From NCBI RefSeq assembly GCF_018977255.1, contig NW_024704742.1, positions 118,236,001 to 118,300,000 on the forward strand: a DNA stretch of 64,000 nucleotides, in the 5' to 3' direction. Both the position numbers and the translations under genes were made by a program. Of the stretch, positions 1-62,391 are shown piece after piece (the stretch's first letter is position 1; every line of letters begins with the position of its first letter). The stretch is from Callorhinchus milii (taxonomy: Eukaryota). The notes under the pieces are model-generated. The model made no database searches. It had not been told where the DNA came from and worked only from the letters and a program-made list of their open reading frames with translations.

Positions 1-114
1 CAAGTATCGTAAGTAGCATGCCCCCCATGTGTAAATACATAGATTCAAACCCTTTTTGAGTGAGATCAGATGCTCTTACCTGAGGCTACAATCGTACTTA
101 ATCCTATTGCTGCA

Positions 115-697
115 ACTGTGTAGGGCCCTGGTGAGACCACACCTGGAATACTGTGTCCAGTTTTGGTCTCATTTAAGGAAGGAGGTACTTGCCTTGGAGG
201 GGGTGCAGCGTAGATTTACTAGGTTAGTGCCAGGGATGAAGGAGATGAGTTACGAGAATAGGCTGACCAATTTGGGCCTATATTCTCTAGAATATAGAAG
301 AATTAGAGGGGATCCTTTAGAAACCTATAAGATCATCAAAGGGCATGATAGAGTAGATAGTGGGAGATTATTTCCCCTGGTTGGAGAAACTAAAACCAGG
401 GGTCACAACCTTAAAATCAGAGGCCAGCCCTTTCGCACTGAGTTGAGAAAGAACTTCTTCACTCAAAGGATGGTGAATGTATGGAACTCACTACCCTGAA
501 GGGCTGTTGAAGCTCAGTCCTTGAACGTATTCAAGACTGAGATAGATATATTTCTTATTGCAAAAGGATTAAGGGATATGGGGATAAGGCAGGGTCAGGT
601 TATTAGCTGTAGTTAGATTAGAAGATCAGCCATGATTGAATGGCAGGGCAGGCTCAAAGGGCCGAATGGCCTACTCCTGCTCCTATAAGTTATGTTA
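115..697 (+). mobile_element. CR1 LINE, 5'-truncated 3' end
   Basis: ORF 56..499 carries CR1 ORF2 C-terminal motifs (LVRPHLEYCVQFW, EGVQRRFTR, NFFTQRMVNVWNSLP). Typical 3' UTR gggccgaatggcctactcctgctcctat. Confidence 0.9.
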
Positions 698-1944
698 TTG
701 GAGTGTTTTCTTTCCCCTCCTACTTCTTTAAATTAGGTTGATGCCCTGACAGTGCATTCTGTACACTATTTGGGTCAAACATGAATGGATCAGGCAATAT
801 CATAATTTGCTGATGCATTTATTACCCACTCATTGATGTGTATTAAATTCAAAGTTTGGCCAAGCAATAAAATTTTTCTTTCAATGTACATAATCTAAGG
901 CATTGAGACTCCTCTAAATAATCTTTCACCAAATCAGCTGTTCAAAGCTTTCCAAAGCTCTCTGTTTGCAATTTAGGAATGAAGATTTGCCAGCACTCGT
1001 ATTTTGAAAAATGATTTGAGTATCAACTCTTTGAATGACTTGCCAAATTGTGTGTTTTGGAACAATTCCATACAATCAAATGTTGATCTCTCTGCAGTTA
1101 TTTATCATACATCAGGTAAAATTATGTATCAGGAAAGCACCTAAACCAGGTTAAAGTATCTTGTTCGTTCCACAAGAGAAATCTAGCGTTACGACTCCTG
1201 TTTGAAATCTAAAATGCAAATGTTTATTACAAATGATTCTTACCAGTTCCTGGAACTACCATGGCAACAAAACATCTCATTTGAGTTGGCTAATTGCTGC
1301 TGTTGATGTGAGCATTTGTTTCAAACTAAACAATTTTCCTGCATGTGAAATTGGAAAAAAAAATTATGACATGCTCAAAATTGCTTGATTCAACCTTCAA
1401 TTATGTTTTTGTTCACCCTTTGTTCTTCTCATTATCCCCCACCCACATTTTGATCACCTGCCCGATTTCAGTCGATCTAGGAGAGAGCAAATAAAGGAGG
1501 TATCCTTTAGATTCTGATTCAGTGTCATTTCCAATTGCTTTCGAGGCAGGGTGGATCGCTAGCAGCAGCTCCAAGCCAGCATCTCACTTTTGTGGCCAGT
1601 GCATGAAAGATCAGTATCTCTACTCAGTACACAGGTCGTCAAGGCCAGAGTTGTTTCTTACAAAGGCTCTTCAGAAGTTGAATGATGAAAGATAACTGGG
1701 ATTCTTTATTGTTTGTACCTTTGTAAAGTAATACTGTAAAGTAATACTGGTATGAACCAATTCCAGAAACGCCTTTTGGAAGGTCAAGTCCAGTTTTATT
1801 CGACAAACCTGGCATCTTTTTTGCCTTTCCTGGTGCACATTAATCTATTTTACACACTTCATAAAAAAAAAACCATGCACTCTTGAGTTAAGGTCACATA
1901 ATGTATTTAGACTATTCTGCCTGCCTTATGTTTTCCAGATATTT

Positions 1945-2432
1945 AGATCAGGCTCCGTGACCCCATCACTCCCACCCTCGCCCGACTCCACTGGTTCCCC
2001 ATCCCTCAGAGGATCGAATTCAAGATCCTCGGCGTCACTTTCACGGCCATCCATGGCCTTGCCCCCTCCTACCTCTCTGACCTGCTGATTCCCTACCAAC
2101 CTGCCCACTCCCTCCGTTCAGCGGGCTCCAGTCTGCTCCATGTATCCCACCCGATCCGCCCTACCATCGGTGGCTGGGCTTTCAGCCTCTCTGCCCCCAC
2201 ACTCTGGAACTCCATCCCACAGTCCCTTCACCTCGCTTCTTCCCTTGCCTCCTTCAAGGCCGGTCTCAAGACTCTCTTCGATCGTGCCTTCAGTTGCCCT
2301 CCCACCTCTCTGCCTTCCCTCACCCCTACCCCACCCCTCCCCCACGCTCGGGTCCTGACCCCTGACTGTCCAGCGCCTTGGGATGTCCTCCTGACATGAA
2401 AAGCACTCTATAAATGTAATGTTGTTGTTGTT
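1945..2432 (+). mobile_element. L2 LINE, 5'-truncated 3' end
   Basis: Encodes LARLHWFPIPQRIEFKIL...HGLAPSYLSDLL...AFSLSAPTLWNSIP (L2 ORF2 C-terminus). Tail cagcgccttgggatgtcc...ctataaatg followed by (GTT)n. Confidence 0.88.
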
Positions 2433-3308
2433 AATGTCCCAGAAATTGCATTTACTCTGAATTGGTTTAGTCAGAATATGTCTGTATACTACAAAAACAG
2501 GAGCCTTAGCCTTATTCCTTATAAAGCATTGTCAGAATGCTACATGATACAGTTTGATTTTCTACTTTCTGCCCAATATCACGGCATATATTTGATGGAA
2601 ACGGGGGAAAAAAGAGATGAAGTTTCTATAGTTATAAATCTGAGAAACGTCTTTGTTTCCTGTGAGGACAAAAACGGGATTTTTCCGTCTCCACACAAAA
2701 GCTTCATTTCCCTCTGTTGCCACTTTCTCACAAAGAGCAGAAATTCAAAGCCAATGCTTCTGTGGGGAGGGGAGGATTGGTAATTGTGCTGTGTTTGTGG
2801 ATTGAGTGAGATCTACATTTGTGCTTGTGTGCGTTAAATTATTTGCATAATTATTCATAGTAGTCTACTTGAGATTGATTTTGGTATAACTTTGGGGACG
2901 AGTTCCCTGCTAAGGGATGACAAGTGCACCCAAAAGAAGACGAGAATATAAACTATAAGGAACAATAAACTAATTTCTGTCTACTGAAAGCATGAGAAAC
3001 GGATGGTTATTAAGAGTTGTCTGATCTGCTCTCCTTCTGGATCAGTGCATAAACGCACAGCCTGAGGGGATGCTGAGGCAGATCTGAAAGAGCCATGATT
3101 TAGATGCTGTGCTGGCCTTTGCTGAGTTTGCTGTTGTGAGCTGGAGCCTCACTGGGTAACCAGTGTCTGAATCTTGTCAAAGTTAGAGTGGGCTAGACAT
3201 AAAAGATACAGTTTTATTCTCACACTTTAATGTCAAATTGAGGTTTCACAAAACCTATGTTGCATTCTATTGAGGCAGCTGTTTCAGAAATAAAATCTGT
3301 TACAATAT

Positions 3309-3648
3309 TATAATAATCCTTGTATTTGATATAGCACCTTATCGCGTGTTTGAGATGTCTTAAAGCATTTTGCAGAATATACTGTACAGTGAATTAATTA
3401 TATATTTTGAGCCAATTGCGCACAGCAGTGTCCCACAAACAGTCATGGATTTAGTGACCAATTTATTATTTTTTGAGGAATTATTATCCCTGGAAAAGTG
3501 ATCCCCCAATCGACTAACAACCGGGTTCCTACTTACTGCTAGGTAAGCAGGCATGTGGAGTAAGAAAACTTGCCCAACGTTTTGGCCTGCCAGGTCTCTC
3601 TCTCTCGTGCGAGGCGAGTGCTCTAACCACTAAGCTACAGGACTCCAT
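3309..3648 (-). mobile_element. tRNA-Ala-like SINE, long subtype, near full length
   Basis: Head ggagtcctgtagcttagtggttagagcactcgcc, body ccttgggcaagt-like plus ttacctagcagtaagtagg, tail caaggattatta. Many copies in the window. Confidence 0.85.
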
Positions 3649-4064
3649 GAAACTTTGATTCAAGTACATTCTCATAGATTCCTAACCTTTTTCCCTAAGA
3701 ACCAACAATTTTGATATTTGGGCTATGATTAAGACTAGAAAGTTGGAAAAATTTAGCGCTTTTATTAAAGAGCCAGTTTGTTTTTAAAGTTCAAGGAGTC
3801 TTCAAGTTTCTTGACATTCATGTTTTTCTTTAACGTTCTCTTGCAAAGCTTCACTAAACCAAAGAGTGTAGTGGAAGATTGACCTGAATATTGAGTAGCA
3901 ACCCACTGCATTCCAAGGCAACATGTTAATATCCTACCTCATTACACAACATTTCAAGCAGATGGTTGGGTTTACATAAGCAATACATGCTTTAGACTCA
4001 TGAAATTAACCAAATTATATATTTATGTTTGGCAAGAAAGAATACATAGAGAATCAGTTCCTGA

Positions 4065-4350
4065 CATTCTTCAGATGAGATGTTAAATTGAGCTCCCACC
4101 TGCCTGTTCAGATGAACATTAAAGACCCCATGGTACTATCTGAAAAGAGAAGGGAGCATCTCACAGTCGCCTGGCCAAGAATCTCCTAGATAAAACTGGT
4201 TATTCGCTGTCTGTTTGTAGAATATTCCTGTGCACAAAAATTGTCTGCTCCATTTGCCTACAATTACAGTCACCTCACTCTACAATAAATCCTGTGAAAT
4301 GCTTTGAGATGTTTCAGCAACTTGATAAAGTACCATATTAAGTCCAAATA
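4065..4350 (+). mobile_element. Deu-domain SINE fragment
   Basis: cttcagatgagatgttaaa...cattaaagaccccatggtactat resembles the Deu central domain shared with AmnSINE1/SacSINE1. L2-type tail. Confidence 0.7.
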
Positions 4351-6314
4351 TTTAATTTTTTCAATCAATTACATTTACCCCTTATTAAATTGACAGAAGC
4401 CCTCATTCCTTTCATTATCACTGTCTGAAATTAACTCTTTACCATCCACAGGAGTGATTAAGAGCTTGGGTTGGGAGACCAACACAGGAGGCCCTTGCTG
4501 CACACTTATCTCCCAGTCCTAAATATAAATAGTTGTTCCCTTACCTGTACTTTTTTCCTCCTGAATGAGGTGATTCTTTCTGTGATTACAAAAAAAGTTT
4601 AATGACTGGAGGGAGCACCTTTTTAATTCAATCAATCACTGTTTATTTTGCAGAGAGGTGACACACTGTCATTTTTACACACTGAAATCAACTGTACTAT
4701 CAGGTGCAGGTGCTGAGACAGACACTCACCCCAGAGCTACATAAAGCAAAGGACAAATCACTGTATCAATTGCCCAAGCTTGATATAGATTGGAGTAGCA
4801 TCATCTAGTTTGTTTGATTTTGTGAGCGAAAGGAAAAAGGTTAAACACTTTTGAAATTGGATCTGCTTAGCATTTGTGGTATGAAACACAACAGCCACAG
4901 TAAAGTATGAAAAACATGAATAGGTTTAATAATTCAGTGTTGCACTGAATGTTTCAGTGTTGTGGGAACAGGGTTACCATCCACACATTACTGCTGAATT
5001 AATTACATTAATAGGGAAAATGGCCGACTGGGAGTGTTTACTGGGCAACTCTGCTGAACAGCTTTGGCAGATCTGTTGAAATAATACTCTACACCTCCAA
5101 CAGGCAACTGTTTTTTTCAACAACAAATTCAGTAATTTAATGATAGTGGTTATCAATGTAACAAGTGGGGTCAATGGTATTGCTACAACAGCTGTCATTT
5201 TGAATTCTGATGCATAAAGACATTTTGGCTTTGAGGTTTGTGTTCAATAAATCTCCATCAACTTGGGGAAGACATTGTAAAAATTACATCAACTGGGGTC
5301 TGATTACAAAGGGCAACTTCCAACTGTCCATTTAACAATCAGCTATTACTGGATTTCACCACTGATGTTGAATCTAATCATTACTGTGTAAATAGACGTG
5401 TGAGTGATGCTTTGAAATAGGGCTGACAAAACCCGGGATTCTTTACACTGGATGTTTGACACAATAACAGAACCTCAATTGTGCTAAGGAGGTCAATATA
5501 TAAACAGCAGATATATGCCATTTTAATACTTTTGGCAATATACAGTAGGTAAAACTTGCTGTAGCCCTTAACAAATATGTTTTTTTTAAATCTATATTAA
5601 GTTCAATCACAAAATAAAATGATATTCCACCGGTCAATGTCTAGATCATTTTATTTTGGCCGAAGCATTATTCTGTAGTAAATGGCATGGCAATTGAGAG
5701 GGCATAGTGTGGTGGGTTACTCCTAGGTTACTGAAAATGTTATCAATGAGAGAAGAGTAAAAAAAAATGGGTTTCTACGGAGCCCTTCTTGTTCACTTAG
5801 GCTCTGACAGGCTGAAGTATTCCATTCATCTGGGGATAATTTGAGTAAAAGAGTGAAAATAGTTCCGAACTCGCATTCCCTGAATCCTCTGTGTGGTGCA
5901 ACAAATTATTATTTCACAAATGTTGCTCCAATTCATAGTGACAGTTCCACCCAAGGACTATCATTTAATTTTCAATAACATTAATAATCCTTGCATTTGA
6001 TATAGCTGTTTTATCACGTCGTTAAGACGTCTCGAAGCGCTTCACAGATTATATCGGAAAGTGGATTGACTGGCTATTAAACATAACTGTAGTAATTCTC
6101 TTCACAGAAACCATTGCTTGTGTGTCTATGAGTACTGGACGTTTGACTGCATTGTCTCAATTTGAGATGGCCTAGCCTTATGTAGAGAAGGCTAATTTAG
6201 TGATCCAGAATTTATTCAGAAATGATGTGTGTATTACTGGATAAGATCTATCACATCAGCCCCAGTTCAAAATCCACATCTCTTCCTTCCACACACAAAA
6301 ACACAATAGGCAGT

Positions 6315-15494: not shown

Positions 15495-16016
15495 AACAAC
15501 AACAACAACAAGATTTCATTTATAGAGCACCTTTCACATTGGGAGGCCGTCCCAAGGCGCTGGACAGTTGGGTCGGGACCCGAGCAGGGGGGAAATGGTC
15601 AGGGTGAAGGGAGGAAAGGGAGGGAGCGAGGAGGGGGTAGAGAGTCGAGAGGGGAGCTGAAGGCACGGTCAAAGAGAAAGGTCTTGAGACCGGCCTTGAA
15701 GGAGGAAAGGGAGGAGGCAAGGTGAAGGCACTGGGGGATAGAGTTCCAGAGCCTCGGGGCTGAGAGGCTGAAGGCCCGGCCACCGAAGGTAGGGCGGTTA
15801 GGGCGGGGGATGTGGAGCAGACCAGAGCCAGAGGAACGGAGGGTACGGGCAGGTAAGTAGGGGATAGTAGGTCGGAGAGGTAGGAGGGAGCGAGGCCGTG
15901 AATGGCCTTGTAGGTGAGGATGAGGATCTTGAATTCGATCCTCTGGGGGATGGGGAGCCAGTGGAGGTGAGCGAGGGTGGGAGTGATGTGGTTGCGAAGC
16001 CTGGTGCGGGACAGTA
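15495..16016 (-). mobile_element. L2 LINE, 5'-truncated 3' end
   Basis: ORF 15599..16090 contains RTLRSSGSGLLHIPR...FGGRAFSLSAPRLWNSIP...FKAGLKTFLF. (GTT)n tail at ~15495-15510. Same family as 1945-2432. Confidence 0.9.
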
Positions 16017-16039
16017 CACAAGCTGAAATTCAAATATAA

Positions 16040-16300
16040 AGGTAATTCCCCTGGCCTGGGTGAGGGCAAAGTATCAAGCAGGTTTCCCATTCCTAATCCC
16101 CATCCAGCGACTCACTTCTCTTACTGGAAGCTGTGTGAGCATTGATGTGAGGTGGAGACAGGACACTATGGTCCCATAGAGTGCATCCTTCATTCACTGT
16201 GTGTCTCCACAAGAAGATTAGCCACTTGAGTGCGGGTGGTTAGCACTAGAGAACTGTAGCCCAACATGAGTCAGTGCCCTCAGGAGAGGAATGGGAAATA
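16040..16300 (+). mobile_element. Unclassified old SINE-like repeat, family B
   Basis: Shares blocks (caggtttcc..., gaggacagga, gccacttg, caggagagga) with ~56020-56345, ~42100-42450, ~49490-49640, ~33230-33390 and ~24440-24780 (minus). Confidence 0.55.
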
Positions 16301-27037: not shown

Positions 27038-27170
27038 CAAAGAAATAACCCTCTTTACTTGGTTTTAAGTAAGGAGTGTTATTTCTGCAATTTCAAATGA
27101 ACACAAATGCACCCACTAGCAACAAAACCCAGCGATTGTTGTAGATTATTAGTGAGAGAGTCAGGCCTAC

Positions 27171-27600
27171 CTGCAATTCCCTGCAGCAATCCGCAGATGT
27201 TAAAAATGCTCTTCTTCAGGATGCTCTGCACACACATGGTGAAGACGGACACGAAAGCCACGGCGCACAGAACCAGAATACCTGTGGCCAGAAAGATAAC
27301 CGTCGCTTTCCAGAAGCCGCTGGCAATTTCCCCAAAGTTCTCAGCGTACGGACCACACAGAGTCTCTCGCTTGATGTTCGTGGAGTAGGAGAGTTTGATG
27401 CAGCGGCTGTACAGGCCCAGGGTGGGGCGGTAAGGGCTGCTCACGCTGCCCGAGCGGTTTGTCAGGGCGGGAGAGCCGCTGGGCTTCGACCTGCCGATCA
27501 GCCAGTCGGCGCTCATGAAAGCAATGAGTTCAGCGAAGGCCACCACAATGCTGAGCAGGGTCCATAACATCGAGCGGCAGGTAACAATCACATGACACAT
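27171..27600 (-). CDS. lhfpl2: LHFPL tetraspan subfamily member 2, first coding exon (430 nt)
   Basis: ATG at 27600. Translation [36 protein letters not shown]...[22 protein letters not shown] is recognisable as LHFPL2. Donor GCAG|GTAGG with GT at 27170-27169 (phase 1). Confidence 0.96.
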
Positions 27601-35070: not shown

Positions 35071-35543
35071 GTGGAGTCCTGTAGCTCAGTGGTTAGAGCA
35101 CTCGCTTTGCAAGCGAGAGACCCAAGTTCAATTCCAGGCAGGGTGAAACCTTGGGCAAGTTTCTTTACTCCACACGCCTAATAATAATCCCTTCAAAACA
35201 CAAAAGGATTATTATTATTAATTCCCGGGCAGGGCAAAACTTTAGGCAGGTTTCCTTACTCCACATGTCTCTGTTTACCTAGCAGTAAGTAGGAACCTGG
35301 TTGTTAGTTAATTGTTGGATCGCTTTTCCTGGGGTAATAATTCCTTCAAAAATAAATAAATAAAAATAAATAATTTGGTCACTCAATCCACAGCTATTTG
35401 TTGACTATTGCTGTCTGTAATTGGCTACCGAGTTTCACCCACAAGATATTAATTCACTTTGCAATATGATCTGTGAAACTCTTTGAGACGTCTCAAAGTT
35501 GTGATAAGGCGCTATATCAAGTGCAAGGATTATTATTATTATT
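35071..35543 (+). mobile_element. Tandem tRNA-Ala-like SINEs: internally deleted copy (35071-35220) then 5'-truncated long copy (35221-35543)
   Basis: Head with A box gtagctcagtgg, anticodon arm ctcgc-tttgcaa-gcgag (TGC) and B box gttcaattcc; two separate (ATT)n tails. Confidence 0.85.
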
Positions 35544-36711: not shown

Positions 36712-37038
36712 ACAATAATAATACTAATAATCCTTGCATTTGATATAGCGCTTTTCACGTCAGGAGGACGTCCCAAAGCGCTTCACAGAATACACTGTAA
36801 AGTGAATTGACTGTATATTTGTGGGCGAACGCGGCAGCCAATTGCGCACAGCAATGTCCCACAAACAGTCGTAGATTGAAAATGACCAATTTAATTATTG
36901 TTTTTGTTTTTTTGGAGGGATTATTATTAGGCGTGTGGAGTAAGGAAACTTGCCCAAGGTTTGGCCCTGCCTGGAACTGAACTCAGGTCTCTCGCTTGCA
37001 AAGCGAGTGCTCTAACCACTGAGCTACAGGACTCCACA
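36712..37038 (-). mobile_element. tRNA-Ala-like SINE, short subtype, full length
   Basis: Lacks the ~70-bp ttacctagcagt block (acgcct|aataataatccc junction); tail loop is L2-like (gggacgtcctcctgacgtgaaaagcgct). Confidence 0.88.
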
Positions 37039-50346: not shown

Positions 50347-50650
50347 GGATTCCTGTAGTTCAGTGGTTAGAGCTCTCACCTTGCAAGCGAGACACCTGGG
50401 TTCAATTCTAGGCAGAGCAAAACCTTGGGCAAGTTTCCTTACTCCATACGCCTGATAATAATCCCTCCAAAATAATACAATAATAAATTGGTCATTTTCA
50501 ATCCACGACTGTTTGTGGACACTGCTGTGCGCAATTGGCTGCCGCGTTTTGCCCACAAATATACGGTCAATTCACCTTACAGCTGTGAAGCTCTTAAGGA
50601 CGTCGAGAAGACATGAAAAGCGCTATATCAAAATGCAAGGATTATTTATT
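50347..50650 (+). mobile_element. tRNA-Ala-like SINE, short subtype
   Basis: Head ggattcctgtagttcagtggttagagc; junction acgcct|gataataatccc. Confidence 0.85.
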
Positions 50651-56900: not shown

Positions 56901-59900
56901 TTGAAATTTTCATGCCGTGTTCCCAAGGCTCTTGCCAATAGCACTCTTGTACACCGGGAGGCACCTGAAGGTTGATTGAAGGGGACTCAGCAATCAGCTC
57001 TGCTGAAGACCCTGAAATCAGGGAGTTCAATGGAAGGAAACCCAGAGACATATAGCTGCTGGTGAGAGCTGAGCAAGGACCTGCATTACCAGTTATTCTC
57101 CTGTATTAGTTTTATGGATGTATCAATATAATGGTTGCAGCATTGGTATAAGTGTAACACCAGCACTTTATTCTTTGAGCGATATAATGATTTTCTTCCT
57201 CCAGGAAGCTGATTGATAACTATAATAAAGATTTTAAAAAAGGGCTTTGAGCTGCAGCTAGTCACCACTGAAAGAGAAAATATATCGCACTGGGAACAGT
57301 CAGATAAAGCCAACTATAGTATTAGAGAAGCAAATACTTGTATTGGAGTCACTCAGTTATAATTCTGATTTATGTTACCAGTGAGAGGCAGCCTGGAAGC
57401 AGACCGTTGGAAGAAAGCTGACTCCTTCCCCAATGTAACGTTCTGACCTTTTGATCCAGCAGTTTATTAAAGGGGAGGATTGGGATAATTCTCCTTTAAC
57501 ACTCAGCATCCCATGATACACTGCTCTTTAAAAGTGCCTATATGTAACGAACAAAGTGTTGAGCTAACTGGCGGTTGGGTACAGGGATCTCATTGTGTAG
57601 AGCTCCATGACAATTCAATCACGCCTGCCTGTGGTACTGTGATTCGTGAAACTTTTGTGTTTGCGATAGAGTGCCATACGTGCACTGTAGTATTTTCATA
57701 ACGTCTTATATTTATTCTAGGAACCTCAGTGATGACTGACATAATAACCCAGGCCGGCGAGTTTGATTGTCAAGTCGTCTTTCCAGACTCAAAGTCCTGA
57801 CCTCACAGCGTACAAGGCCACCCTGACGGTAAATTTCAAAAAAAACAAATAAAGTTAATTTTCCTGGAAAGAAAACTAGGCAAATCTGCTTAAAGTTTTT
57901 TTTGGCTAAATAAACTGACTGACCAACTTATTGTGGCCATTACCTAAAATACAGGGAGTTCGGAAGCAGCCCGGCCTGCATCTACTAGACTGAAGTTTCA
58001 ATCAGTACTCATTGATTTATATTTTGTAATTACATTGGCATTTTCTCCTGAATGTTCATTGTTGGGCAGCTAAATACGATACCGTCAGAAACTAACTGGG
58101 GAGCACAATCCACCAAGTGTCACCCTAAATGATCATCATATTAACAGGCAGGAAGTATATGATTACCAGCAGCCCTGAGATCACCACTGGCCTCGGAATA
58201 ACATGCTACATAAGCACTTCTTGTCATAAAACAGAATCCAAACCCTTTTATATTCCAGTTAAAACCACACCGTATCCATCCACACTTCCAAGAGAGGCTT
58301 CTGAGAGGTTATGGTTGCAATTACAGTGAGCTATGGAGCCTTCAAGGGCTATGATAAAATGTCCTGGTTCCCTCACAAGGATACGCTTGCCTTTCATTAC
58401 AACTGCACTGAGCTCTCATTTAACTCTTCCTGGTAGGAATCTATAAATAGGAGTTTTTTCCTGCCAAGTTTTGCCCTTCTCTCCTCTCATTGAAGCATTT
58501 CACTGCTTTTTCCTTCTGTTGGATGCGTTTCCAGGGTGCTGTTCTGGTAACTCAACCATGCACCAGTATTTATGAGTGATCCTTGACAGTGAGTGTTAGG
58601 GACTGTTAGGGTTGTCACAACCAATGCTGTCCTCACCCAACATTCACTTCCTGCAGAAGATCTCCGAATAACAATCAGGAGCAGGAACCTCAGCCACTTT
58701 GCCCCATTCCGGGGACTCACTGTCCTGGTAGAGATCTGCTACGAACACCGCAATTCCCTAGAAGCAGATTTCAATGTTTAAAGAAAATTCCTCCGGGATG
58801 ATTGAATTGCTCACTTTCTACTTTGAATGACGTGCACTGCACATCGATGACTGTCAATTTTTTTTTATTTTCAGAGACGTTCATGTGACAAACAGCAGCA
58901 CAATTGAGTTGTGCTTCCCACAAGCTGTCATGTGAGGTGACTCTACCCTTCAGGCATTAAAATCTGACTATAATTACTGGCAAATGTAGAGGTCACGTTG
59001 GGAAAATAATTTCACTTTATTTTAAAAACTGCATCTTTGTAGCTGTCTTTTCTGATTACCGTTTGTCTCTGTTGCAGCTACTGATCATTCGTCCAGTGGG
59101 AAAGCACTCCAAGCTATCAACATTTCCACAGCAGCTGTCAGCTGTAAGAACAGGATGAAGCCACTCAGCAATATCGAGCCAACAATTTTGATCACGGAGA
59201 ATCTTCTAACAACATTTTCCTGCCTTTTCTTCATATCCCTTAATACCTTTACTCCCTATGTAAGCACCGTGATACTAGGTGAAAAGACAAGGGAGTTTCT
59301 CCAGGTGTGTTGGCCAACATTCCTCCAGATAAAATTAGTCATTCATCGCATGCCTGTTTATAGGATATTACTGTACACAAACTAGTTGCTATGTGCGCCT
59401 AGAAATGAACAGTCACTACACGTAACACTAATTCAAACCTTTCTACGGTACAGGCACTACATCCAATATAAAGATTAATCTTCTTAAATTCTTCCTAAGG
59501 TAGGGCACCCAAAATTGAAACCAATATTCCAAATAAGGTCTGATCCTCCCTCTATATATTATTTCCATCACCAATTTCTCCTTATATTGCAGATTCATTT
59601 CTGAACGGAGATACATACATTCTCAGACTTTAACTAGTTGTGTAGTTGGGGATTTGTAACATTGCTTGCATAACACATGTACAAATAGAAACCATTTTTC
59701 TAACTGAAAACACAAATAATAATCTTGGCAGCTTCAAACTGAAAGTGTGTTTAGTTTGTTGGGTTGGCAGGCGAGGGCTAAAATGATTTACATTAACATT
59801 GCTTGAACTAATTCGCTGGACTCTTTCTGGCCAATCCTTTGTGAGGTGACAAAAATAGGTGGAAACAACACAGAGGCTGAGACGGTGATTACATCACTTG

Positions 59901-60198
59901 TGTCAGGTTTTGTGCTGAAGCTCCGCAGCTGAAGCTGTATATGTGGCAGTCAGCACATCTAAAGGAGACATGAACAAGGAGCATTTACATGTGGGGGCAG
60001 GGCATAAAGAGTGCGATTGAGATCAAAAACATGTTGTTTTGGGATAAAATCCAAATGCAAGCTGGATATCAACAGGTGTGATTTACACTCTGTGAATAAA
60101 AGGACGGAAGTGGGAGGTGTAATGGTTGCTCTCTGACTCACTGTGGCTAACCTTTCCCTCAAAGAAGCAACTTTCAGCTTCTACGCAAGGGGACGTTC

Positions 60199-60914
60199 TG
60201 AGGGATGGTGTTCTTCAGGAATTTCTCAACATAGAATAGATGGATTGGTACGCTCCAACTGTGTGGAACGTTTTGAGGCAGTTCTGCCAGAGCCACCCTT
60301 CTCAGCACCGGGTACAGGTAGAAACCCAGCACATAGCAACATTTGTTGCTGGCGTAGCGGGGCTCCAGTCACAGCCTCAGGCAGCTACACCTGAAGGTGG
60401 CCATGAGGACCCCTTTCCCCCCCTTTCCGGGGTTTTGTACGTCGTGTCTCGGCGGACACGAATCATCTTGGGACCCCCAGATCAGTTGGAAAACCTCTCT
60501 GATGACTGCAGTGGTGTTGTTCCTGGTCAAAGGCCAGACGTGGGCCACGTATTGTAACACCGAGAGGGCTTCACACTTTATCACCAGATTTTTCCTGGTG
60601 ATTGGGTAAACATGTGCGAGTGCGGTGCACATCGGGGCGCATTCTGAAAGCGGCAAGTGCGCCTTATCAGGGTGTGTGCAGGCACACACATGGATGTGGT
60701 GCACACAGGGGCGACTCCCGATTGTTTTAAAGGGAGCATCCAAAAAACGTGCGCGCAGCCTGTGTGCGGGGAAGGAATGTACTGTAAACAACGGAATGTT
60801 TTTTCGCATCGGGAGGAAGAGAAAAATTGTAACAGACGATGTCGTGTTTGTTTTGGATTTGTGTTGTACCAAATATTACATTTATGAATAAATAAATACT
60901 TTCCAAAAAAAAAA
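60199..60914. mobile_element. L1/Tx1-clade retrotransposon insertion with inverted 5' part
   Basis: ~60199-60609 reads on the minus strand as decayed post-RT ORF2 (KNLVIKCEALSVLQYVAHVWP...FQLIWGS/KMIRVRRDTTYK...GG...LMATF...VEKFLK). ~60610-60914 on plus ends in AATAAA and A10. TSD at 60185-60198 and 60915-60928. Confidence 0.78.
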
Positions 60915-62391
60915 GCAATGGGACGTTCCAAACTCAAACAGCAGGTAATGGGGCAGCGCCTTGGCTTTGTGCACAAAGACCTTCATCAAGCAGCAGCTTG
61001 TTTCAACACAGAGTCCTAGGCTGAAAGCTTGCTCACATCTCTCGATTGTGGATCAAAGCCATCCCCGGGAGGTTCAGCAGTGACTGTACATTGCCCACAC
61101 CTGCTCATCTTCCTCTACGGAAGAAAGTGCGGAGGCAACTGTATCAAATCCAAAGGTGGGAAAAGAATAAAACAATAGGAATAAACAAAAGTGATCTCAG
61201 TTAAACATGTGGGAGGGTTGAGGCAGCTGAAAGATGAAGCTGAGCACTGTACTAGACCTGTGGGACTCCTTCAATGTCTCAAGTGGATGTATGCACCACC
61301 TGATGTAGTGTTAAGCTAGAGAGCCCTAGAAAATCTCAGGTATGATCTCTGAACAGTGCTAAGATAGCCTTAGGTAGGATGTTATGGAGAGAGTACAATA
61401 CATTATATCTTAGCATCCTGAGGCTAGGTTGACTGTCTAGTGCCTTGGGATGTCTTCCTGACGTGACAGGCACTATACAAATGTAATTTGTTGCTGTTGT
61501 TGTTAGGGGGCACAGTACCAGCAACATGTGTGTTATGCATTCTTAGGATACTGCTGTTTCTCCAACAACAGTCATTTCTCGTGTCATATAATGTTACTTT
61601 GGAGAATTGGAGAGATAGCTGTATTCTTTTATTGCTCCGCCTAAGTTTGACACAGAAATTTCTCAGCCTAAATTCTTCAGAGGAATGCTGACTTAATGGA
61701 ATATCCTTCACTGAGTAACCACAGTGACAGAAGGAAACACTCAAAGATTGATCACTGTATAACATAGAATACATGCATGTCTTAGTCCCTTACACGCACA
61801 CCAACATAAGACAATGTGCTGATAAAACAATAGAAACAGTTGCTGATATGCAATATGAACTGGCAATGATTCCACAATCCAGGCGCTCATGACAATACAC
61901 AATCTTACAGCACACGGCTTCTTTAAGAATCGTACAAACGAAGCTCAGTCTCCCCTAAACAGCAGGGGAGTTCCATTCTGTATCCTACTGCGTTTCAAGG
62001 TTGGAAATCATAAATCATACGATATATGTGTGAGGTACTAGCCTCTCAGAGAAGCTGTGTGAGTTGGAAAAGCTTGTTTCACTGATGACCTTTGGCTGAC
62101 GTTCAGTAAAGATTGTCACAGCATTATCTCTCTCTCACCTATATTAGATTTCAGTACTTTCAATAAAACAGTTCTCAGTAAGTCCTCCTCTGTATTGTAA
62201 GAACTAGGACAAGTCACTGTACTAGATTTTGATGATTTACTGTACTCCAAATTTTCACTCAACAATGAGTGGATTTTGTAACTAAGGATTTTGTAATTTT
62301 GCTCAGTACATCAATGTAACAAATCCATTAATGTTAGCTAAGTGCTGCTCTGCTCTGTTAGTAAGTTTCACTGACCTATCTCTTTGCACTT

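Follow-up and report, generated by a model that had tools for sequence, protein, structure and literature searches.

Does the stretch at 60185..60928 of this Callorhinchus milii contig hold one retrotransposon insertion whose 5' part was inverted during integration, or two pieces of separate origin lying back to back? We have addressed this question in a window of 64,000 nucleotides (the whole stretch of DNA that was analysed, to which all positions refer), starting from a sequence-only reading that had proposed a single L1/Tx1 insertion with twin-priming architecture in a non-mammalian host. The twin-priming model was reportedly put forward by Ostertag and Kazazian in 2001. The sources cited here and below were accessible in part, and what is said of them holds for those parts. 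According to them, twin priming predicts a target site duplication (TSD), an inverted piece, the sense 3' end, a poly(A) tail and the second TSD, in this order (PMC2912911, PMC4245944, PMC11702581, 10.1101/2024.08.27.596794). The locus is one insertion with exactly this order, i.e., a TSD, an inverted ORF2 piece, a sense non-coding tail, poly(A) and a TSD, and the proposal is supported by the TSD, by the polarity of the two halves and by contigs from public sequencing runs.

The insertion is delimited by a 14-bp direct repeat on the plus strand, at 60185..60198 and 60915..60928, whose copies are identical at 13 of 14 positions and whose match has no clean extension in either direction. The left copy adjoins a flank that is single-copy in runs X1 and X4. 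The right copy abuts the poly(A) tail directly and is followed by a single-copy flank; beside this tail the limits of the TSD are uncertain by a few letters. Chance matches of at least 13/14 were found in 8 of 20000 random boxes of 25x25 nt placed 730 bp apart, at 11 of 2000 random window positions when searched 100-2000 bp upstream, and upstream of none of the 31 other A runs of at least 8 in the window, so that the duplication described before as surrounding the insert holds both on the repeat match and on these controls. Its length lies within the 10-20 bp expected for a twin-primed 5'-inverted LINE insertion, the range reported for 5'-inverted L1 (PMC4245944). The cut site, where CTAC closes the left flank and GCAA opens the TSD, differs from the human TTTT/AA consensus. 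Separate TSDs for the two halves, the outcome that the sequence-only reading had set against its own proposal, were also looked for, and the best candidate for either half alone matched at 7 of 14 positions, versus 13 of 14 for the whole insert.

The left half is an inverted internal piece of 401 bp at 60202..60602, on the minus strand, whose identity and limits come from phmmer, tblastn and the breaks against other copies. Its minus-strand translation, with the stop read as X, gave 59 phmmer matches at E<=0.001 (best 7.5e-33), and tblastn with the proteins found in this way traced the homology from 60602 to 60204 on the same strand. The best named relatives belong to whale shark, basking shark, horn shark and a skate. 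The piece is 50-52% identical to the shark proteins and 39-43% identical to P0061 and P0063, while the most similar stretch is found in the Callorhinchus milii protein P0020, with 67-71% identity over part of the piece. The whole relatives P0061 and P0063 carry the Pfam domains Exo_endo_phos, RVT_1 and zf-RVT, and their best solved structure is human L1 ORF2p (E 7e-80), with R2 proteins reaching just 1e-20. In P0061, a 1130-aa ORF2 of the EN-RT-zf type, the endonuclease occupies residues 7-222, the reverse transcriptase (RT) 504-752 and zf-RVT 958-1027. The left piece aligns to residues 788-920, just past the RT domain and ahead of the zinc-binding region, and it is the downstream end that faces the left TSD. 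In addition, P0013 and P0107 are fused gene models that join a ZCCHC3-like domain to related ORF2 sequence; we take Tx1 to be the label for the LINE type that combines an EN-RT-zf-RVT ORF2 with a ZCCHC3-like, zinc-knuckle ORF1.

The piece has decayed, with one stop near 60369-60371, a one-letter insertion near 60470 and a deletion near 60410, and it is a net 18 nt short compared with other copies. By homology, it is recognisable as a decayed post-RT stretch of an L1-clade (Tx1-like) ORF2 whose closest relatives are in chondrichthyans. The decayed minus-strand L1/Tx1-type ORF2 seen in the earlier reading was thus recovered by both phmmer and tblastn. The loss of the C-terminal zinc-binding region that it proposed is also borne out, since the whole relatives have this region (Pfam zf-RVT) downstream of the piece and the insert is devoid of it. 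No ORF2 homology was detected to the left of the left TSD when both flanks, along with the right half, were compared by blastx with 153 proteins (best E 0.19). A word-indexed protein search with the ORF2 piece scored none of its 254 candidates, and neither blastn nor the ORF2 profile run on six frames revealed a second copy of either half in the 64-kb window.

To place the limits of the parts we have used other copies of the family. Four of the 24 public sequencing runs listed contained half or more of the words, and 1022 contigs from X1, 1140 from X4, 186 from X5 and 42 from X10 could be aligned at 80% likeness. None of the runs is listed as RNA, although X5 may be. The summed depth is 6-11 in the flanks and reaches hundreds or thousands within the insert, dropping back where the insert ends. 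In X1 it is 8.5 in the left flank, mostly 450-1270 in the left half, with 60 in the bin containing the indels of the studied copy, then 1190-5100 in the right half and 7-14 in the right flank; summed depth is not copy number, and only its steps have been used. In the contigs of these runs, the flanks are single-copy and both halves are multicopy. Together with the one shared TSD and the lack of an own TSD for either half, this demonstrates that the locus holds one insertion. The higher summed depth of the 3' half is what 5' truncation of a single family would give.

Other copies leave the studied one at three places. Among the 24 of 594 loose ends listed, they break before 60202 in 21 contigs each of X1 and X4, behind 60602 in 18, 19 and 7 contigs of X1, X4 and X5, and before 60605 in 22, 29 and 7 contigs of the same three runs. 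These positions divide the insert into 60202-60602, two letters, and 60605-60914. Thus, the sizes of about 410 and 305 bp and the junction at 60610 given before were right in outline and coarse in detail, the other copies giving 401 and 310 bp and a junction at 60602/60605. Beyond 60202, the other copies continue the ORF2 in frame with DPRAITEWS (translated by hand), in register with DHxSIRxWS of sharks, and beyond 60602 they give LVMWRQRSLS, which is found letter for letter in Callorhinchus milii P0020. With the ORF2 reading on in frame at either end, the inverted piece comes from within ORF2 and has no tail of its own. The sequence before 60605 in the other copies is unlike the insert (median loose length 62-99 nt).

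The insertion itself is carried by X1 and X4, in both of which the two outer junctions are spanned by contigs with 0-1 differing letters, at 59850-60231 on the left and at 60853-61250 on the right. No locus-specific contig across the inner junction 60602/60605 was present among the 32 of 2461 pieces listed, none of the contigs listed holds both halves, and no strand-changing or insert-skipping joint appears among the 15 of 43 joints listed. The paralogous pieces listed differ from the studied copy by 6-16% in the left half and 13-18% in the right half. Over 59850-60231, where the window has 382 letters, the locus-specific contigs of both X1 and X4 have 383, possibly owing to a one-base assembly error or an allele. 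Run X10, which bears the same species label, covers only 60696-60930 and 61116-61223, and its right-flank piece differs in 10 of 108 letters; it may represent a related species.

The right half runs on the plus strand. Its sense 3' end at 60605..60904 is a multicopy, non-coding and strongly folding repeat that extends farther upstream elsewhere in the family. Two overlapping AATAAA polyadenylation signals (60887-60892 and 60891-60896, together 60887..60896) and a poly(A) tail of 10 nt at 60905..60914 are present as noted before. Including this tail, the sense piece measures 310 bp (60605-60914) and is 5'-truncated at 60605. No ORF2 profile match, no Pfam match in the three plus frames and no protein relative were found for it: the search with its stop-free frame scored none of 15 candidates, and the blastx against 153 proteins went no further than E 0.19. 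These negative protein, blastx and Pfam searches rule it out as an ORF2 C-terminus. A SINE with a head derived from tRNA, 5S or 7SL, or a structured RNA, was considered as well; the tRNA scan made no call within the insert and Rfam gave no match at E<=1 in 59500-61500, and a head farther upstream is possible, as the piece is 5'-truncated. In the sense direction, the right half folds better than all 100 shuffles (z -3.1), and in a second run with 40 shuffles it reached z -3.9, with -0.7 and +0.5 for the flanks. The predicted fold of 60605-60914 is a row of consecutive hairpins (z -3.1 to -3.9).

The right half thus behaves as a structured, polyadenylated, 5'-truncated retroposon tail. We infer that this tail and the ORF2 piece belong to one LINE, the tail being its 3' UTR, on the basis of the shared TSD, the similar divergence of the halves and the higher depth toward the 3' end. 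Its CpG observed/expected ratio is 1.15 (60610-60914), compared with 0.49 in the left half and 0.35 in the window, and several of its positions read C or G against T or A in the majority of copies. A minor source lineage and GC-biased change are both candidate causes of these features. No DNA of this family was confirmed in metagenome and viral contigs, where three viral loci with a 16-nt pattern share nothing else with it.

The junctions between the parts are short. The 5' junction comprises the 3 nt at 60199..60201, delimited by the divergence of other copies at 60202, and read directly it consists of 2 extra letters and a 2-nt microhomology. A compatibility test offers a lead to another reading: in 8 of 23 relatives, the eight 3' letters of the TSD fit the back-translation of an R-N-V-L stretch that lies exactly 10 codons farther downstream, and 54 of 1500 random 14-mers fit an equally long stretch anywhere in 30 residues. 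On this reading, the junction might hold what is left of a site of 8 nt where the primer annealed, with an in-frame deletion of 30 nt after it. The inversion junction consists of the two letters 60603..60604, between the loose ends behind 60602 and those before 60605. GG is offered by the family sequences of both sides, giving 1-2 nt of microhomology and 1-2 extra letters. In P0061 and P0066, about 204-208 residues follow the matched stretch. With the gap sized from these two relatives, about 612-624 nt of ORF2 (204-208 codons) and at least 30 nt of UTR, i.e., about 640 nt or more, would be missing between the two pieces. The breakpoints of the segments would thus be far apart on the RNA; a short deletion or duplication is typical of twin priming, not obligatory.

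We are confident that this is a product of twin priming in one form or the other, on one RNA or on two, and a single retrotransposition event of an L1-clade (Tx1-like) LINE, with both primers used on one RNA, is the probable course. The steps would be as follows. The endonuclease, to judge from the TSD, would have made staggered nicks 14 bp apart. The bottom-strand end would have primed cDNA synthesis on the poly(A) and copied about 310 nt of 3' UTR, of which the tail and its polarity are seen in the insert. The top-strand end would have found its annealing site within ORF2, shortly after the RT/thumb region, and from there about 400 nt would have been copied in the 5' direction; here the piece and its polarity are observed, and the 2 nt, possibly 8 nt, of microhomology point to the annealing. 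The first cDNA would have halted far short of the second primer, leaving uncopied some 640 nt or more that include the zinc-binding C-terminus and part of the UTR. The cDNA ends meet at 60602/60605 with 1-2 extra letters, and end joining may have linked them. Such a copy would have been dead on arrival and would have decayed since. Nothing indicates a function for this old, dead copy.

Twin priming on two templates, in which the DNA ends of one event were extended on two RNAs to yield an opposite-orientation chimeric retrocopy, is a reading that we consider unlikely while taking it seriously. The RNAs could be two transcripts of the same LINE, or one of the LINE and one of another polyadenylated repeat (of a different Tx1/L1 family or a non-autonomous tail element). 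The large gap would then require no halt of the first cDNA 640 nt or more too early, and opposite-orientation insertions made from two RNAs have been described for human L1 in the accessible text of PMC13174262, PMC11702581 and PMC4476161. The direction of substitution also differs between the halves: compared with the majority of copies, strong-to-weak changes number 13 in the left half and 6 in the right, and weak-to-strong changes 4 and 8, respectively (Fisher p 0.075; 37 listed places of the insert with another letter in X1, with 591 further rows outside the test), a weak hint of different source copies. The same three runs, however, contain both halves in multiple copies of similar divergence, and a chance partner need not match in age. 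Several contigs of X10 carry the final ~160 bp of the tail and none carries the ORF2 piece, as two sources would predict, but this run is shallow (42 contigs), it is also devoid of 60602-60695, and the pattern is accounted for by the GC-rich part being lost more strictly at the 80% cut. In the same-family form, two molecules would be indistinguishable by sequence from one.

Two further explanations dispense with an inversion at insertion or with the observed centre. A later rearrangement of a 5'-truncated copy, or two back-to-back insertions with a chance match of the 14-mers, is very unlikely in our judgement. The age of the copy and its other indels would suit such a history, and up to 8 of the 14 letters of the left TSD may be ORF2-like, which would lower the independent information in the repeat; against this, the right 14-mer abuts the poly(A) exactly and 5 of the 6 letters that are not ORF2-like match too. 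A later inversion would have had to end by chance within 3 nt of the TSD, where the inverted piece ends, and as a separate insertion the internal ORF2 fragment would have lacked a tail to prime it, and there are no separate TSDs. We give hardly any credence to an assembly error, in which a longer twin-primed copy had its centre collapsed and the large deletion is unreal. That no locus-specific contig among the 32 of 2461 pieces listed spans 60602/60605, or the whole stretch, is what a collapse would leave, but two runs bear out the outer junctions as well as the opposite polarity of the two ends, and the inversion is independent of the centre.

The window around the insertion contains an LHFPL-family coding exon at 27079-27600 on the minus strand (Pfam L_HMGIC_fpl, E 1.9e-36), presumably of LHFPL2. 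The insertion lies about 33 kb on the 5' side of this exon, possibly in a 5' UTR intron of the gene. Short repeats are numerous in the window. Three tRNA-Ala(TGC)-like calls, at 35075-35146 (+), 36963-37032 (-) and 50350-50419 (+), lie at the ends of an abundant repeat of ~320 bp, which has many copies in the window, and are probably the head of a tRNA-derived SINE. Open frames at 35-499 (+), 1947-2432 (+) and 15501-16111 (-) have no Pfam match, the last two being 79% alike over 506 bp; we take them to resemble the 3' ends of CR1 and L2 LINEs.

This is a known process, well documented for human L1 and sparsely so for fishes, in a new lineage, seen in one copy: the same product as that of human L1 twin priming, in a distant vertebrate lineage, in the germline and from a Tx1-like element. 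The 14-bp TSD fits the idea that a long 3' overhang permits second priming, and, owing to the large gap, this LINE family lends itself to asking whether both primers use one RNA. In the accessible text of PMC4245944, 5' inversions were almost only those of human L1 in human cells, with none for L1 in chicken cells, and were concluded to depend on both host and element. The literature that pairs the model with Callorhinchus, teleosts, Tx1 or the L1 clade, as far as we could cover it (few subscription papers among it), gave no germline case in a fish, and studies of zebrafish L1 junctions may bear on this novelty. We offer as a tentative conjecture, which may well prove wrong, that twin priming is regular in this Tx1-like family of cartilaginous fishes, accounting for several percent or more of insertions, with long skips or two-RNA joins, and that it is neither a speciality of mammalian L1 nor dependent on mammalian host factors, dating to early jawed vertebrates at least.

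Among known systems, the human twin-primed L1 is like the studied insertion in the order of TSD, inverted piece, sense piece, poly(A) and TSD, in the length of the TSD, in short microhomology or extra letters at the junctions and in having an internal deletion. About 31% of recent human and chimpanzee L1 insertions are 5'-inverted, and nucleotides added at the 5' junction occur in just 3.9% of human L1 copies with a 5' inversion, in the part of PMC2912911 that was accessible. The differences are that our host is a cartilaginous fish, that the element is a Tx1-like L1-clade LINE, and that the internal deletion is about 640 nt or more, whereas the median internal deletion is 14.5 bp in 1120 of 1703 human inverted insertions (10.1101/2024.08.27.596794) and 1-10 bp is given as typical in the available part of PMC11702581. 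In addition, the sense piece is here shorter than the inverted one, whereas the human medians are 1.51 kb and 0.54 kb (10.1101/2024.08.27.596794).

The opposite-orientation chimeras of L1 with U5, tRNA, 5S or mRNA sequences share with this insertion two opposed segments within one TSD, the 3' one with poly(A), as far as the available text of PMC4476161, PMC13174262 and PMC11702581 goes. Unlike in these two-RNA chimeras, the inverted segment here is itself LINE ORF2. The L1-clade LINEs of chondrichthyans and amphibians (EN-RT-zf-RVT) share the ORF2 type with the studied copy, which is without the EN, RT, zinc-binding region and ORF1. Finally, the 5' inversion of zebrafish Nimb-2_DR in chicken DT40 cells, described in the accessible part of PMC4245944, also concerns a non-mammalian LINE, but it is a single cell-culture event of another clade, whereas the Callorhinchus milii copy sits in the germline and is seen in at least two of the sequenced runs.
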